A DNA stretch of 64,000 nucleotides. Source: Elusimicrobiota bacterium. Its GTDB lineage: Bacteria > Elusimicrobiota > UBA8919. Below, piece after piece: positions 7,325-59,242 of this stretch. The notes beneath the pieces were generated by a model, which saw only the letters and a program-made list of their open reading frames with translations, was not told where the DNA came from and made no database searches. The stretch spans positions 10,807 through 74,806 of the forward strand of contig JAFGLF010000006.1 of the NCBI GenBank assembly GCA_016928195.1, written 5' to 3'. Position numbers and translations under genes: made by a program. Position 1 is the stretch's first letter, and each line of letters opens with the position of its first letter.

Positions 7325-8807
7325 CTCGATAAATATAAACTTTGGAACCGACGGATGGCGCGGTATTATAGCAAAAGATTTCACGTTTAAAAATGTTAGA
7401 ATTGTTTCCCATGCAATAGCAGACTATATAAAATCAGGCAGTAGGCAGCAGGCAGTAGGCAGTAGCCTACACCCTACACCCTATACCCTATACCCTGCCG
7501 TAGTAGTCGGTTATGACAATCGCTTTCTTTCCGAGAAATTTGCAGCAGAAGTCGCTAAAGTTATTTCTGCAAATGCTATAGATGTACACATTTCACAAAC
7601 AGCGGTAACCTCTCCATCAGTTTCTCAGTACTGTCAAAAAAATAATTGTATCGGAATAATGGTAACTGCAAGTCATAATCCTTCGGTATGGAACGGATTG
7701 AAGATTAAAATGGAGTATGGCGGTTCTGTAACTGAAGAAGTTATAAATACTATTTCGTTAAATCTTTATAAAAATAGCGTAAAAATCAGTCCTGATACCG
7801 CAGGGCGGAATATAAAAACAGTTGATATTCTGAAGGGATATAAAAAACATCTTAAGGCACTTATAAAAATAGGTTCAGGTATAAAATCAAGGGTTATTAT
7901 TGATTCAATGTGCGGCAGCGGTTTGGGTATTTTTGAACAGATATATAAAGGGAAAGTATGTTCTATTCGCAACTACAGAGATCCGTTGTTCCCAGGATTT
8001 AACCCGGAACCAATAGAAAAGAACTTGCATGAACTGAAAAAAGAAGTATTAAAGAATAAAGCTGCTGCCGGATTTGCTTTGGATGGTGATGCTGACCGTC
8101 TCGGAGTTATTGATGATAAAGGCCGTTTTTTGCCTCCTCATATTGTATTCCCTTTGATTTTATTATATCTTTTTGAGTATAAAAAGTTAAAAGGAAAAGT
8201 TGTTCAGACGATTTCCCTTGGATATCTTTCCGAACGTATCGCAAAGAAATATTCTCTTCCGTTTGAAGAGGTGCCTGTCGGTTTTAAGTACATATGTGAA
8301 AAGATGTTAAAAGAGGATGTTTTGCTGGGCGGAGAAGAATCCGGCGGGTATGGATGGAAAGGCGGGATACCTGAAAGAGATGGTGTGCTGAATGCACTGC
8401 TGCTAACGGAAATGATGGTGAATTTAAAAAAGAAACTTTCATTTTTAGTGGATGACTTACAAAGAAGATTTGGCAAATCATTTTTTATGAGGAGAGATAT
8501 CAAACTTTCTAATCCGGTAGATAAACAAAAATTTACCGAAGAAATAAAGAAAAAAATTCGTAATAATTCGGGTTTTAATTCGTCTGCCTCGCCGTCGTCA
8601 GGCGGGTGTCAATTCGTATCTTCTGTTGCAGAAATCAGAACATATGATGGTATAAAAATAATTTTTAATCCGCCGGAGGCGGGGTGGCTTTTACTCAGGC
8701 CTTCGGGAACCGAACCGGTTCTAAGAACCTATTCGGAAACCTGTTCAATAGCCAGGACAAAAAAACTTCTTGATTTCGCGGAAAAAATTTGCTTTAATAT
8801 AACATAA
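7308..8807 (+). CDS. Phosphoglucomutase/phosphomannomutase
   Basis: FGTDGWRG, TASHNP, DGDADR, GEESGG, RPSGTEP. Confidence 0.93.
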   Translation: MIMGGNSININFGTDGWRGIIAKDFTFKNVRIVSHAIADYIKSGSRQQAVGSSLHPTPYTLYPAVVVGYDNRFLSEKFAAEVAKVISANAIDVHISQTAVTSPSVSQYCQKNNCIGIMVTASHNPSVWNGLKIKMEYGGSVTEEVINTISLNLYKNSVKISPDTAGRNIKTVDILKGYKKHLKALIKIGSGIKSRVIIDSMCGSGLGIFEQIYKGKVCSIRNYRDPLFPGFNPEPIEKNLHELKKEVLKNKAAAGFALDGDADRLGVIDDKGRFLPPHIVFPLILLYLFEYKKLKGKVVQTISLGYLSERIAKKYSLPFEEVPVGFKYICEKMLKEDVLLGGEESGGYGWKGGIPERDGVLNALLLTEMMVNLKKKLSFLVDDLQRRFGKSFFMRRDIKLSNPVDKQKFTEEIKKKIRNNSGFNSSASPSSGGCQFVSSVAEIRTYDGIKIIFNPPEAGWLLLRPSGTEPVLRTYSETCSIARTKKLLDFAEKICFNIT

Positions 8808-10153: not shown

Positions 10154-11488
<1,335 letters not shown>

Positions 11489-11700: not shown

Positions 11701-13428
11701 ATGTTGAACAAAAAGATGTTATCATATGTTTTACTTGTTCTCTTGTTCTCTTGTTCTCTTGTTCTCTGTCTTTATGCAGAATCATTTAAAATTTTAGGTA
11801 CACGTCCGCTTAGTATGGGTGGTGCCTATGTTGCAGTCGGAGAGGATGCCATTACGCAGTACTGGAACCCCGCAGGTCTTGGTATAAATAAAGATGTCGA
11901 TTTGCAAATCCCGGTGGCTGTCAGGGCGGAGCTTACGGGTGATATTCTTGGTTCTGCAGACCGGCTTTCGGAGCTCTCCACTCAGTATACTAAAATTTCA
12001 GAAGCACAGAAGGCAGGAAAATCCATTTCACTTGATCAGCTTTCAGCTTTTGCCAAAGGCATAAAAGAACTTAATGAGTTGAATGACCCTAAAAAAGGTG
12101 TTATTATAGATGTAAGTGGTGGTGGAAATATAAGAGTCGGACATTTTGCGATTTCTGTAAACAATTTTACATCAGTCGGTGCTGACCCGAATATTGACAT
12201 ACAAAATCTCGGATTAGGTTCCGGAAGTTTTTCTCCGGAGTTAAGAAGGGCGGTTTCCAGGGTAACGATACCGGAAGAATACAGCGGTCTGGATCTGGGG
12301 GATATTGTAGATGATTATAATGCGACTTACCAGGCGAGTAATCCCGGTAAAAATATTTATGATACTCCGTCCGATGCCTCAGTAGCTGCATCCGCAACCA
12401 CACTTGCTGCAGGGTTTTTAAAGGATATTACAACAGAGCTTACAAATTTGGGAATAGATACATCAATAACAGCTTCTCTTCCTGCAGGACTTTCGGTTGA
12501 ACAGGCAATAGCCAATGCTATTGTAAATGCAGCATCGGACCCTAATATTGCAGCACAGCTTGGAACTACTGCACTTACGCCTACGGAAATTTCGGAATAT
12601 GTACAGCAAATAGAGGAAGTAAGACCTTTAGTCAAGACTATTTTGCAAAGTGCGGTTGCCGGGTCATCTTATGCTAAGAACCAGTCAAACCTAACAATAC
12701 GCGGTATATCAACATACGAGGCATCTTTAGGTTATGGAATGGAAGCGCCTTATGTCCAGTCAACAGAGGTTTTGAACGGATTTTTTAAAGGACTTTATGT
12801 GGGTGCCAATTTGAAATATATGAGAAGCGATGTCGGTTATTTAAAGGTTTCACCGTTGTCTGATGATGATGTGGATATATTTGATGATATTGACAATAAT
12901 AAGGAAACTTCAAATGCTATAGGTATGGACCTAGGATTTTTATTACAGAAAAGATTTTTTAACAAAAAAACCCATTTCGGACTTTTATTCAGAAACATAA
13001 ACGGTCCTTCCTTTGACCAGCCGCTTGCTGCACAAACGGACGGCGAGGGCTCGGATTATGAGCTCGACCCCCAAATCCGCGGCGGTTTAGCTTTTTGGCC
13101 GTTTAACTGGTGGACACTTTCACTGGATATGGATATAACTAAAAATGATACTCCATTGCCAGGTTACAATTCACGTCTTTTTGGGGTTGGAAACGAGTTT
13201 AATATATTAAACAAGACATGGCTTAATCTCGCGTTAAGGTGTGGTCTTATGAAAAATACAGCAGAATCCTCCGCAAAAATGGCTTATACAGTTGGTTTCG
13301 GGTTAAATCTTTTCCATTTTGTTATTGATGCCGGTGCTGCTGTATCTTCGGAATGGGTGGAAATAGAAGACGGTACAGAAGTTCCTTCTTCTGGTGCAGG
13401 TGCAGTAACTGTTTCGTTTGACTTTTAA
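11701..13428 (+). CDS. Outer-membrane beta-barrel, TraF/PorV-like clan, with large central insertion
   Basis: Signal peptide; GTRPLSMGGAYVA..YWNPAGL; C-terminal F; ATG 11701 after GAGGAGG. Confidence 0.7.
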   Translation: MLNKKMLSYVLLVLLFSCSLVLCLYAESFKILGTRPLSMGGAYVAVGEDAITQYWNPAGLGINKDVDLQIPVAVRAELTGDILGSADRLSELSTQYTKISEAQKAGKSISLDQLSAFAKGIKELNELNDPKKGVIIDVSGGGNIRVGHFAISVNNFTSVGADPNIDIQNLGLGSGSFSPELRRAVSRVTIPEEYSGLDLGDIVDDYNATYQASNPGKNIYDTPSDASVAASATTLAAGFLKDITTELTNLGIDTSITASLPAGLSVEQAIANAIVNAASDPNIAAQLGTTALTPTEISEYVQQIEEVRPLVKTILQSAVAGSSYAKNQSNLTIRGISTYEASLGYGMEAPYVQSTEVLNGFFKGLYVGANLKYMRSDVGYLKVSPLSDDDVDIFDDIDNNKETSNAIGMDLGFLLQKRFFNKKTHFGLLFRNINGPSFDQPLAAQTDGEGSDYELDPQIRGGLAFWPFNWWTLSLDMDITKNDTPLPGYNSRLFGVGNEFNILNKTWLNLALRCGLMKNTAESSAKMAYTVGFGLNLFHFVIDAGAAVSSEWVEIEDGTEVPSSGAGAVTVSFDF

Positions 13429-16873: not shown

Positions 16874-16955
16874 GATTACACAGAGTATTAGAGACGATTA
16901 CACAGATTAGTAAATTGGTTTTATCTGTGTAATCTGCCTTTTAATCGCTGTAATC
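16874..16955. repeat. GATTACACAG / ATCTGTGTAATC periodic hairpin
   Basis: Direct reading; flanked by small palindromes GCGACTTCGTCGC and AGTATCGGA..TCCGATACT. Confidence 0.8.
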
Positions 16956-19736: not shown

Positions 19737-19832
19737 TAACGCGAATGTACGCGAATAAAGAAACAACGCGAATTTACACGAATAAAAAATTTGTCCGCCG
19801 AGGCGGATTAGATTAGCGTTAATTTGCGTTTG
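19737..19832. repeat. ACGCGAAT periodic hairpin with nested TCCGCCGAGGCGGA
   Basis: Direct reading. Confidence 0.75.
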
Positions 19833-19854
19833 ATGTTCATTATACAAAAAGTAC

Positions 19855-19883
19855 TTGACAAAATCAAGAAATTTCATTATAAA
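19855..19883 (+). promoter_or_regulatory. sigma70-type promoter for riboswitch/SprA-like gene
   Basis: TTGACA-17 bp-TATAAA. Confidence 0.7.
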
Positions 19884-19900
19884 AGTACTAAGACGATAAA

Positions 19901-19960
19901 CCCCGTTAGAAATAACTGAAGGGGGTTATCCCGTTAGATATTGTATATTTTCTAACGGGG
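19901..19960. mobile_element. 60-bp palindromic element CCCCGTTAGAAA..TTTCTAACGGGG flanked by TAAA direct repeats
   Basis: 12-bp terminal inverted repeat; TAAA at 19897-19900 and 19961-64. Confidence 0.8.
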
Positions 19961-20178
19961 TAAAGGCAAACTCTGAGAGGCGGTTCAATAGTTCAATGGT
20001 TGAAATGTTCACAAGGACTTAAGAACCAATGAACATACTAACAAATGAACTGACTTTTTGGGGGGCGCAAAGCCACAACCCAGAACGGCGGTTCACAGGT
20101 TCAATGGTTCAAATGTTCTTAGGAACTAATGAACATACGAACAAATGAACTGACTTTCTGGGTGCCGGGTTACCGAAA
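19959..20178 (+). ncRNA. c-di-GMP-I (GEMM) riboswitch aptamer with greatly extended P2 and P3
   Basis: Core motifs in order: TAAAGGCAAAC, GGCGCAAAGCC, GCCGGGTTACCG; pairable P2 and P3 stems; downstream terminator. Confidence 0.8.
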
Positions 20179-20242
20179 TTAAAAGATAGGGCAAAAGTAA
20201 GCTTTTGTGCTTATGTATTTTTGCGCCTTTCTGTTGATTTAT

Positions 20243-20284
20243 CCGAGTTTCGGTTGTTACGGCAGTCCGTTGGCTCGGTTTTTT
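20243..20284 (+). terminator. Intrinsic terminator (riboswitch expression platform)
   Basis: CCGAG..CTCGG stem + T6; TTTCGGT (20248-54) is complementary to aptamer ACCGAAA (20172-78). Confidence 0.75.
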
Positions 20285-26710: not shown

Positions 26711-26804
26711 TGGAGGCAGTTAAGAAGATTAAAAGATTAAAAGATTAGAAAAATTAAAATCTTTCAATCTTTCGAATTTTCCCAATCTTTTTAATTGATT
26801 TTAA
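26711..26804 (+). repeat. TGGAGG + 81-nt AAAGATTAA/TTCAATCTT periodic hairpin
   Basis: Near-identical copy at 30322-30418; looser copy at about 25575-25645. Confidence 0.85.
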
Positions 26805-30321: not shown

Positions 30322-30418
30322 TGGAGGCAATTAAAAGATTAGAAAATTAAAAGATTAAAAAAATTAAAATCTTTCAATTTTTCAAATTTTTCCAATCTTT
30401 TTAATTGATTTTATTTAA
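30322..30418 (+). repeat. TGGAGG + 80-nt AAAGATTAA periodic hairpin
   Basis: Copy of 26711-26804. Confidence 0.85.
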
Positions 30419-30760
30419 ATGTATGGTTTTGTTTTGACTATTCATATTATAGTAAGTGTAGGTTTAATTTTGATTGTACTTTTGCAAGCTGGTAAGGGTG
30501 CAGGAATTTCCGGACTTTTCGGAGGGGGAAGTAATGATTCGGCTTTCAGCGGGGCTACCACACCGGGTGTTATTAAAAAGATTACAACCACAATGGCTGT
30601 GTTGTTTATGATAACGTCTTTAGCTTTAACGGTCATTATAGCAAAATCCAGAAGAAGGTCTTTGGCTGAAACTATACCTGTTGCTCAGCCCACACAGCAA
30701 CAGCAGCAGCCAGCCCCGTCTCCATCAGGTCCGGATGCTGTGCCACCGGCACAAGAGTAG
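30419..30760 (+). CDS. secG: Preprotein translocase subunit SecG
   Basis: VLLQAGKGAGISGLFGGG, two TMs. Confidence 0.95.
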   Translation: MYGFVLTIHIIVSVGLILIVLLQAGKGAGISGLFGGGSNDSAFSGATTPGVIKKITTTMAVLFMITSLALTVIIAKSRRRSLAETIPVAQPTQQQQQPAPSPSGPDAVPPAQE

Positions 30761-45496: not shown

Positions 45497-45628
45497 GAAA
45501 TACATGGAAATACGATAGAAATACAATGGAAATACGGTAGAAATATGGTAGAAATACAGTGGAAATATAATTGTGTTTCTATGAATTTCTACGAGTTTCC
45601 CGCCGAAGGCGAGGCTCGCCTCTGGCGG
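45497..45628. repeat. 11-mer tandem GAAATACRRTR array with inverted arm and nested GC palindrome
   Basis: About 7 GAAATA units followed by TTTCTA units and CCCGCCGAAGGCG..GGCGG. Confidence 0.8.
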
Positions 45629-59155: not shown

Positions 59156-59242
59156 TGATATGTTTATATGTTGATACGTTGATATGTAAAATCCTATATC
59201 CGTATCAGCGTATCACCGTATCATCTTATTCTTTCGCGAAGC
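59156..59242. repeat. 8-mer TGATAYGT / CGTATCA periodic hairpin ending in GCGAAGC
   Basis: Direct reading. Confidence 0.75.

Follow-up and report, generated by a model that had tools for sequence, protein, structure and literature searches.

We analyzed a 64,000-nucleotide (nt) stretch of DNA from an Elusimicrobiota bacterium (contig JAFGLF010000006.1 of assembly GCA_016928195.1, forward-strand positions 10,807 to 74,806), here called the window, and identified in the 5' leader of its sprA-like gene a genuine riboswitch of the cyclic diguanylate (c-di-GMP) class c-di-GMP-I (GEMM-I), most likely functioning as a transcription-termination OFF switch. The window aptamer is about three times the normal size, i.e., the c-di-GMP-I fold is stretched with every core residue kept. 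Judged from sequence and predicted folding, the leader is probably a working OFF switch whose extra hairpins are tolerated expansions, spread by copying and constrained to remain hairpins.

In the mechanism we propose, c-di-GMP would bind the three-helix junction of P1 (19890-95 with 20174-80), P2, and P3, and ligand binding would keep the aptamer tail ACCGAAA within the aptamer. A hairpin (20243-78) followed by six uridines could then form and halt RNA polymerase ahead of the gene, whereas without ligand the tail would pair with UUUCGGU and termination would be prevented. Inserts of 62, 76, and 68 nt interrupt a core of approximately 83 nt, and the hairpins built from GTTCA-type repeats would lengthen P2 and P3 outward from the ligand pocket. 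These GTTCA hairpins would act as tolerated expansion segments, kept as hairpins so that folding stays undisturbed, and would not substitute for a tertiary contact.

Core strands and inserted hairpins of the aptamer

The three conserved strands of the class (AAAGGCAAAC-like, CGCAAAGCC-like, and GCCGGGUUACCG-like) occur in order, enclose two hairpins, and are closed by P1. They correspond to J1/2 (AAAGGCAAAC, 19962-19971), J2/3 (GGCGCAAAGCC, 20064-20074), and the 3' strand (GCCGGGTTACCG, 20164-20175). Positions of the Vibrio cholerae Vc2 aptamer were mapped onto the window by an alignment of our own. In this alignment to the consensus, bases matching G20, C44, A47, A48, G83, U90, and C92 are all present in the sequence, including A20069 at the position of the intercalating A47. 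PMC6140456 describes G20 and C92 of Vc2 as ligand-contacting residues, and PMC11705072 lists the C44–G83 inter-helix pair and the A48–U90 pair among the c-di-GMP-I contacts. By presence of the bases, the junction-proximal C44–G83 equivalents are kept at 20066 and 20164, and A48–U90 corresponds to A20070 and T20171.

We complemented the motif comparison by a cmscan search. All 80 positions of RF03167 (c-di-GMP-I-GGC), a family of the c-di-GMP-I clan, were aligned at 19956-20178 with 19.8 bits, the best result among all 4227 Rfam families (E-values of 0.028 for a 431-nt and 0.022 for a 331-nt query). Local-end gaps of 79 and 72 nt fall exactly at the tips of P2 and P3. Coordinates and full-length alignment bear out the first-pass annotation, which had placed three core motifs in order, with G and C at the positions of G20 and C92 (G19965 and C20173). 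Its expectation that a covariance model would miss the riboswitch also held: Rfam at the gathering threshold returned tRNA alone over the 64-kb window, the site was absent from the genome-wide cmscan lists (five matches at E ≤ 1 and seven at E ≤ 10), and RF01051 gave no listed match at the site in the window-wide, targeted, or genome-wide runs. In lineages whose stems tend to expand, real riboswitches can thus escape curated covariance models. Matches of the hairpins to miRNA, AdoCbl, CRISPR-DR, and lncRNA families in Rfam (E-values of 2.7 to 10) were dismissed as noise.

A profile hidden Markov model (HMM) was built from 12 compact aptamers (77–87 nt) of related genomes, and the hairpins were removed from the window aptamer in a script. 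The native sequence scored 14.1 bits and the insert-deleted core 36.6 bits, compared to 38–65 bits for the 12 training aptamers themselves. The best of 300 shuffles reached 2.3 bits, and 295 of them gave no match. The first-pass annotation had held that a failure of the insert-deleted sequence to score would speak against a riboswitch; on this profile, no such failure occurred. By these scores, the window core would be a c-di-GMP-I family member at the weak end of the range. Furthermore, the 341-nt fold had a z-score of −6.4, and none of 100 shuffles folded as well.

Regarding the subtype, RF03167 shares clan and architecture with the window aptamer and gave the highest cmscan score for the site; however, its consensus has G after GC (GCGAA, vs. 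GCAAA in RF01051), whereas the window has A (CGCAAAG), as does every aptamer seen across the family. It is therefore of the canonical c-di-GMP-I type and not the c-di-GMP-I-GGC variant. In PMC6140456, A at the G20 position is given as the mark of 3'3'-cyclic GMP-AMP or bispecific GEMM-Ib riboswitches; the window has G there (AAAGGC). An aptamer subclass with AATAGC for AAAGGC, i.e., with A at this position, was observed in the genome of the window (G000; C25:1-120, L014) and in the related genomes G008 (L051/L313), G010 (L040, L042), G007 (L044), and G003 (L028). The compact G008 orthologue of the window leader belongs to this subclass, in contrast to the window with its G.

Like RF01051 members and Vc2, the window aptamer combines the same strand order and sequence, the same ligand and junction residues, and three helices around one pocket. 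Unlike Vc2, it spans approximately 290 instead of 90 nt, lacks the GAAA tetraloop and its receptor, carries a periodic hairpin of 68–76 nt on each of P2 and P3, and has a third hairpin between P1 and J1/2. The apical loops of the two periodic hairpins are ACAA and TTAG, and the 11-nt receptor was not found in the window aptamer. Docking of the GAAA tetraloop into its receptor is present in Vc2 and not in all c-di-GMP-I members; members without it are the 'type 2' of the original GEMM description. The window and G008 aptamers resemble type 2 in having neither GNRA loop nor 11-nt receptor, but type 2 stems are short and plain, whereas the window stems are several times longer and share a repeat module. 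In the literature exclusive of supplementary files, we found nothing combining a c-di-GMP-I riboswitch with tetraloop and insertion or a GEMM-I riboswitch with a tetraloop receptor, and nothing joining a riboswitch aptamer to a miniature inverted-repeat or a c-di-GMP riboswitch to type IX secretion.

The two periodic hairpins lie where the first-pass annotation had located them and are 81% identical without gaps at 100-nt spacing, or 90% identical over aligned module columns. For the motif GGCGGTTCA, the window has two occurrences where 0.34 would be expected, a count reached by 4 of 100 shuffles; the two occurrences of AATGAACTGAC are not significant alone (31 of 100 shuffles). The third hairpin, with arms 100% complementary, is bordered by a TAAA direct repeat and contains an internal second copy of CCCGTTAGA. 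Palindromes of the type CCCYGTTAGA..TCTAACRGGG were observed at window 19900-19961, C1:17137, C23:41693, and C62:263801 of the same genome, as well as ahead of the G006 orthologue of the SprA-like gene (L052); they could represent an operator or a second small mobile palindrome.

The third hairpin also affects where the aptamer begins. Ten bases past the −10 box starts AAGACGATAA, the probable 5' end; the compact G008 orthologue has the same sequence type at the same promoter distance, and AAGACGATAA agrees with the ACGATAAAGGC starts of other aptamers in the genome. GACG at 19892-95 is the likely 5' strand of P1; besides the pairs given in Table 1, A19890/91 could pair with U20180/79. The proximal P1 strand chosen by cmscan (CGGGG, 19956-60) includes a non-standard pair. 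Profile scores of 35.6 bits for the distal and 36.6 bits for the proximal strand do not tell the choices apart, and cmscan with 30 nt of upstream sequence added did not move P1 to the distal strand, since a 62-nt insert located outside a stem is too costly for the model. The third hairpin appears to split P1 from the core, with the distal strand as the true 5' strand. The aptamer would then span approximately 19890-20180, a total of about 290 nt made up of about 206 nt of inserts at three positions and a core of about 83 nt; the estimate of about 220 nt in the first-pass annotation grows to this length once the third hairpin is counted.

Table 1. Predicted features of the sprA-like leader and gene in the window
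Feature	Position	Strand	Details
Likely promoter	19855-19883	+	−35 TTGACA (19855-60), 17-nt spacer, −10 TATAAA (19878-83)
Probable aptamer 5' end AAGACGATAA	19890-19899	+	P1 5' strand: C19894–G20175, G19895–C20174
Third inserted hairpin	19900-19961 (62 nt)	+	stem ACCCCGTTAGAAA / TTTCTAACGGGGT, 13 bp, perfect
J1/2 core AAAGGCAAAC	19962-19971	+	G20 equivalent = G19965
P2	19971-20063	+	base helix CTCTGAGA (19971-78) pairs with TTTTTGGGG (20055-63)
GTTCA module copy 1	19979-20054 (76 nt)	+	in P2; subtype A, one extra 8-nt unit
J2/3 core GGCGCAAAGCCACAA	20064-20078	+	C44 = C20066, A47 = A20069, A48 = A20070
P3	20079-20162	+	base helix CCCAGAA (20079-85) pairs with TTTCTGGG (20155-62)
GTTCA module copy 2	20087-20154 (68 nt)	+	in P3; subtype C
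3' core GCCGGGTTACCGAAATT	20164-20180	+	G83 = G20164, U90 = T20171, C92 = C20173; carries P1 3' strand
Switching segment ACCGAAA	20172-20178	+	within 3' core
Spacer hairpin	20181-20240	+	between aptamer and terminator; sequence different in every leader
Intrinsic terminator	20243-20284	+	CCGAG (20243-47) with CUCGG (20274-78), then U6 (20279-84)
SprA/Sov-like type IX secretion translocon, 1731 aa	20329-25524	+	TIGR04189, E-value 9.4e-44

Probable expression platform, downstream gene, and orthologous leaders

As the first-pass annotation had noted, the terminator carries a segment complementary to the aptamer tail, i.e., UUUCGGU at 20248-54 in its 5' half. RNAfold assigned the terminator hairpin −15.9 kcal/mol; a simple terminator scan left the site unflagged, since its loop rule of 3–8 nt excludes the terminator loop. 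The same succession of tail, variable spacer hairpin, and UCCGARUUUYGGU terminator recurs in five leaders, namely those of the window, C65 of the same genome, G008, G007, and G003. In G007 and G003, the terminator motif has a C-to-U change with which a G–U pair is still possible. This conservation supports the reading that ligand would switch the gene OFF. The spacers of G008, G007, and G003 are unrelated in sequence, and in C65 (L299 350-420) the spacer consists of AAAGATT / AATCTTT units arranged as a periodic hairpin, a unit family that recurs at window 26720-26790. At the other end of the leader, the −35 box lies inside the palindrome CTTGACAAAATCAAG, which is common to the divergent lptF/G promoter, and both palindrome and box are conserved upstream of SprA-like orthologues. 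From this promoter, transcription is predicted to start at about 19890. The plus-strand promoter was missed by a consensus scan requiring T at position 6 of the −10 box; the minus-strand partner has 10 of 12 matches.

The first-pass annotation had placed the riboswitch ahead of an SprA-like gene, which agrees with the TIGR04189 match of the encoded protein (149 bits, below the 200-bit cut-off) and with SprA_N in its Atlas neighbours; a Pfam search of the protein gave no match. Genes following module-bearing aptamers encode Wza/Wzc-like export proteins, a Por_Secre_tail surface protein with a PorV/PorP-like neighbour, and the SprA-like protein, which is typical for the c-di-GMP-I riboswitch class. 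A regulon of surface, export, and secretion functions and an intrinsic-terminator platform are likewise shared with RF01051 riboswitches. The Por_Secre_tail protein (1324 aa) and the PorV/PorP-like gene are preceded by tandem c-di-GMP-I aptamers (C1:30186-30328 and 30482-30702, here C1a and C1b). This tandem is kept in a second genus (G010:C9, G004:C45, G008:C108, and G009:C227), with the module only in the first aptamer of the window's genome. In the SprA-like orthologues at L052, L056, and L051, periodic hairpins (e.g., GTGGTTAT.. / CTTATCCA..) immediately follow the apparent start codon, within approximately 90 nt of the annotated ATGAAAAA, where they belong either to a signal-peptide coding region or to a 5' untranslated region with a later true start.

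Orthologues of the SprA-like gene are present in 11 of 11 family genomes. Nine orthologous loci were scanned, and one, in G008, had an aptamer match. This compact aptamer of 80 nt scores 35.5 bits (RF01051 cut-off 35), shares tail, 3' strand, and terminator motif with the window leader, and has a P2 loop of AAAAAU and a short plain P3 hairpin, with neither GNRA loop nor receptor. We infer that the lineage lacked the tetraloop/receptor contact before the hairpins arrived. The proposal of the first-pass annotation that twin helices replace this contact is not upheld: the compact orthologue already does without it, and the C44–G83 equivalents are retained. The tandem aptamers orthologous to C1a and C1b in G010, G004, G008, and G009 have no module either. 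This distribution marks the hairpins as late, lineage-specific additions.

Among ten relatives, eight had aptamer matches, 40 in total with lengths of 77–185 nt, of which 25 measured 105–185 nt. Other periodic hairpins were found in P3 of relatives, with an 8-mer unit at G007:C114 and a 7-mer unit at G009:C273, so that the stem tips of the c-di-GMP-I riboswitch are repeatedly sites of periodic expansion in this family. Some of the long aptamers owe their length to a duplicated 3' half and not to longer stems. A second copy of the 3' strand (..GCCRGGTTRCCGA..) was observed 20–60 nt past the aptamer at L030, L036, L039, L022, L027, L037, L304, L306, and L307, suggesting that a single 5' half has two 3' halves as alternatives.

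The same comparison bears on whether the riboswitch has decayed, i.e., whether the insertions killed ligand sensing and left a constitutive attenuator or a long structured 5' untranslated region. Such a history would fit the presence of three large insertions, the weakness of P1, a terminator that is thermodynamically favoured regardless of the tail, and a possible misfold of the aptamer. Decay does occur in the family, given that the orthologous leaders of G007 and G003 have tail and terminator with no core recognisable by cmscan at E ≤ 1 or by motifs. However, the window aptamer and the other four aptamers with the module have every conserved core position intact, the insert-deleted core scores as a weak family member, and insertions are found only where a helix can be extended. 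We consider decay of the window riboswitch quite unlikely. As for the two orthologous leaders themselves (L055 in G007 and L057 in G003), GTTACCGAAAC and the terminator are kept, and L057 has a 7-nt AACTNNN array at the expected place of P3; either they have decayed, or their divergence exceeds what the models can recognise.

The GTTCA module and its possible roles

The GGCGGTTCA..GAACTGAC hairpin is a module of 68–77 nt with seven copies in the genome, built of 4–5-bp GUUC(A)/(U)GAAC helices and 3 × 3 purine-rich, non-complementary internal loops that repeat every 8 nt. This genome has 30 GGCGGTTCA sites, seven of which start the periodic hairpin, while the other 23 are unrelated. All seven copies reside in c-di-GMP-I aptamers, which applies to P2 and P3 of the window, P2 and P3 of C65, and P2 of C67, C1a, and C25. 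In C67 and C1a, the module is found in P2 only, and in C25, the contig ends inside P2 so that P3 is unseen. Five of the eight aptamers of the genome carry the module (C34, C19, and C1b do not), and only two pass the RF01051 cut-off. The module pattern was present in 1 of 41 genomes searched, i.e., in none of the 40 relatives. A loose pattern with 17 fixed bases and a gap of 40–70 nt was run against metagenome and genome contig collections; among the matches listed, eight had at least five GTTC/GAAC words, and none was periodic or flanked by aptamer motifs.

When the seven copies are aligned, in-register pairing is seen for 94.2% of cells, compared to 25–52% with the partner slid. Minority cells are rarer in stem columns (11/252) than in internal-loop columns (27/168; Fisher p-value 8e-5, computed on copies that are related and not independent), and this lower variation in paired columns fits selection to remain a hairpin. 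Module P3 of the window is 94% identical to P2 of C67 and of C25, but 90% identical to P3 of C65, and the P2 modules of C65 and C1a are 97% identical, though the flanking P2 bases differ. Since identity tracks neither helix nor host, copying between loci is indicated, and the module may have been spread by recombination or by a hairpin-mobilising activity.

Repetitive palindromes are known from bacteria as repetitive extragenic palindromic (REP) sequences and REPINs with RAYT transposases, and as miniature inverted-repeat transposable elements (MITEs). The module resembles these in being a hairpin unit of about 70 nt composed of two inverted halves and copied between loci. Unlike them, it has seven copies in one RNA stem class, none in ordinary intergenic DNA, and no clear target duplication; instead of many dispersed intergenic copies with transposase-recognised ends, we found seven copies that all lie in c-di-GMP-I stems. 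Variable peripheral riboswitch stems and the expansion segments of ribosomal RNA add helix length at stem tips, off the functional core. In contrast to these, a single, internally periodic module occurs here in two different stems and in five paralogues. An invasion of any structured RNA of the genome by periodic hairpins was unsupported, as the RNase P RNA (453 nt) and two cobalamin riboswitches contained no periodic array according to TRF (Tandem Repeats Finder). Likenesses of the module base to a LexA box (GAAC-N4-GTTC) and of GUUCAA to a T-loop were dropped as probable by-products of the repeat.

Several points weigh against a working OFF switch with passive hairpins. The RF03167 score of 19.8 bits lies below the gathering score of 59, a shortfall attributable to the two local-end gaps of approximately 70 nt, and its E-value stems from a targeted search of 331–431 nt. 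The insert-deleted core was scored by the sequence-only HMM made here in place of the Rfam covariance model. P1 is a short helix with an ambiguous 5' strand. When folded in isolation, the terminator state (−41.7 kcal/mol) was favoured over the forced antiterminator (−32.9 kcal/mol) by 8.8 kcal/mol; the OFF logic therefore rests on the conserved complementarity and not on energies. For C65, the predicted ground state is not the aptamer fold but an elongated one, described below. Covariation within the module amounted to one compensatory pair, from two copies that are 97% identical, and no covariation measure beat the shuffles; it is complementarity alone that argues for the RNA structure of the module. 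Finally, confinement of the module to c-di-GMP-I aptamers is unlike the prediction of purely neutral insertion and leaves room for function.

One such function would be bistability of aptamers with two modules. The P2 3' arm could pair with the P3 5' arm and the outer arms with each other, leaving the J2/3 strand in a loop; this rod would destroy the three-way junction and serve as a built-in anti-aptamer sharpening the switch, and ligand would lock the twin fold with separate P2 and P3. In a variant of this model, two helices of equal length would pack side by side. The twin fold of the window aptamer was predicted at −80.3 kcal/mol and the forced rod at −77.8 kcal/mol, with ensemble shares of 0.90 and 0.10. 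For C65, the other twin aptamer, the rod was the minimum-energy fold (shares of 0.98 rod and 0.02 twin). Moreover, the arms correspond in length, with 93 and 84 nt in the window aptamer and 85 and 85 nt in that of C65, and both module copies are kept at two independent loci. However, these energies are nearest-neighbour predictions that include neither tertiary structure nor ligand and show only how close the states are; during co-transcriptional folding, the P2 hairpin would be formed before the P3 arm exists; and the rod may merely be a tolerated cost. The window and C65 aptamers are also close paralogues with nearly identical J2/3 and 3' cores, so that the two loci may reflect one event. 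Arm swapping as envisaged in the first-pass annotation is thus thermodynamically feasible in silico for both twin aptamers, but aptamers with the module in P2 only mean that it is not required. The twin arrangement as such is no general need, given that three of five module-bearing aptamers show no second copy (C67 and C1a, and C25 with its unseen P3). We regard bistability as unlikely. If true, it would place part of the expression platform inside the aptamer.

As a second possible function, the module could be bound by a trans-acting factor, i.e., by a protein reading GUUC/GAAC every 8 nt in RNA or by a DNA-binding protein reading GTTC-N4 arrays. The c-di-GMP riboswitch regulon would thereby receive a further input common to its members. 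The GTTC/GAAC cores are nearly invariant while the 3–4-nt spacers vary, the module is found in one riboswitch class only, and five of seven copies open with GAAC-N4-GTTC. Approximately 20 further loci in the genome have (GTTC-N4)n or (GAAC-N4)n arrays, with leaders like AACGGCG and trailers like GCCGTTTTT. Yet the conserved cores are the paired positions, for which hairpin maintenance gives the same pattern, and the other periodic hairpins in P3 stems of relatives are built of unrelated units. No candidate reader protein was identified, and the 244 unit types in the genome argue against a single reader. A factor-binding site therefore strikes us as improbable.

Taking bistability and a binding partner together, a functional role for the modules is doubtful. 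Of the same low order as decay of the riboswitch, and hence hardly to be expected, is the most far-reaching version, in which the GTTCA hairpin would be a riboswitch-specific copy-and-paste RNA domain, arisen from family-wide growth of 7–8-nt periodic hairpins at stem tips, that acts as a two-state device when doubled or as a shared second input to the c-di-GMP regulon. Twin/rod bistability or a trans-acting factor would, if true, amount to a new way of building regulation into an aptamer. As passive expansions of a working OFF switch, the hairpins make the leader a curious variant of a well-known regulator and not a new kind of regulator. The insert positions show at which points added helices are tolerated by the fold, and this is of use in engineering and in giving the RNA enough mass for cryo-electron microscopy.

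A further alternative is a misassembly, in which the hairpins were misjoined across a repeat shared with other loci. An independent assembly of the probable source run yielded two contigs over the stretch, which overlap at 20084-20111 (28 nt, within the P3 module). The break falls in the repeat, a 32-nt piece (20082-20113) has double depth, no single piece spans the stretch, and several contigs of the genome end at or near module copies, e.g., C25, C65, and C67. Against an artefact, one of the two contigs (19850-20111) extends from upstream sequence across P2 and the J2/3 core and reaches into the P3 module, and the other continues from 20084 through the 3' core into the gene. The window join alone yields complementary P3 base strands and a single ordered core, and C65 shows the twin layout independently. 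We consider an artefact very improbable. Among RNA runs, none was found to cover the stretch, including two metatranscriptome runs of the same study, a blank that speaks neither for nor against expression.

Short-period arrays and a transposase gene in the genome

Periodic arrays are not limited to the riboswitches. The genome contains 512 tandem arrays with a period of 7–9 nt and at least 2.8 copies, comprising 244 units, compared to 38 arrays in a third-order Markov genome of equal size. Periods of 7 (225 arrays) and 8 (207 arrays) are far above periods of 6 (36) and 10 (44). Examples in the window include 7436-7496, 11734-11767, 26720-26790, 30329-30406, 45497-45600, and 59156-59223, and those at 26720-26790 and 30329-30406 are copies of one element. 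Many arrays are paired into periodic hairpins, and some pairs are non-complementary. The link of the riboswitch hairpins to a repeat family, drawn in the first-pass annotation, holds in part: periodic arrays abound, but the exact module is confined to aptamers, and the other 7–9-nt arrays differ from it in sequence. These genome-wide short-period arrays may be the larger question.

Close to the riboswitch, a further periodic hairpin, with ACGCGAAT units around a CCGCC..GGCGG stem-loop, lies at 19738-19838 between the lptF/G start and the shared bidirectional promoter. Three loci of other genera (L052, L053, and L056) have a periodic hairpin with different units at the same lptF/G-promoter position. 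The only Y1 (IS200-like) transposase gene of the genome (17003-17470, Pfam E-value 1.4e-9) lies 2.5 kb upstream of the riboswitch and has the palindrome GATTACACAGAT-N15-ATCTGTGTAATC in front of it, at 16896-16934. The 12-mer of this palindrome and its complement have 52 and 58 exact copies in the genome. Transposase gene and 12-mer palindrome look like a REP/RAYT-type pair, and this REP-like family differs in sequence from the GTTCA module.

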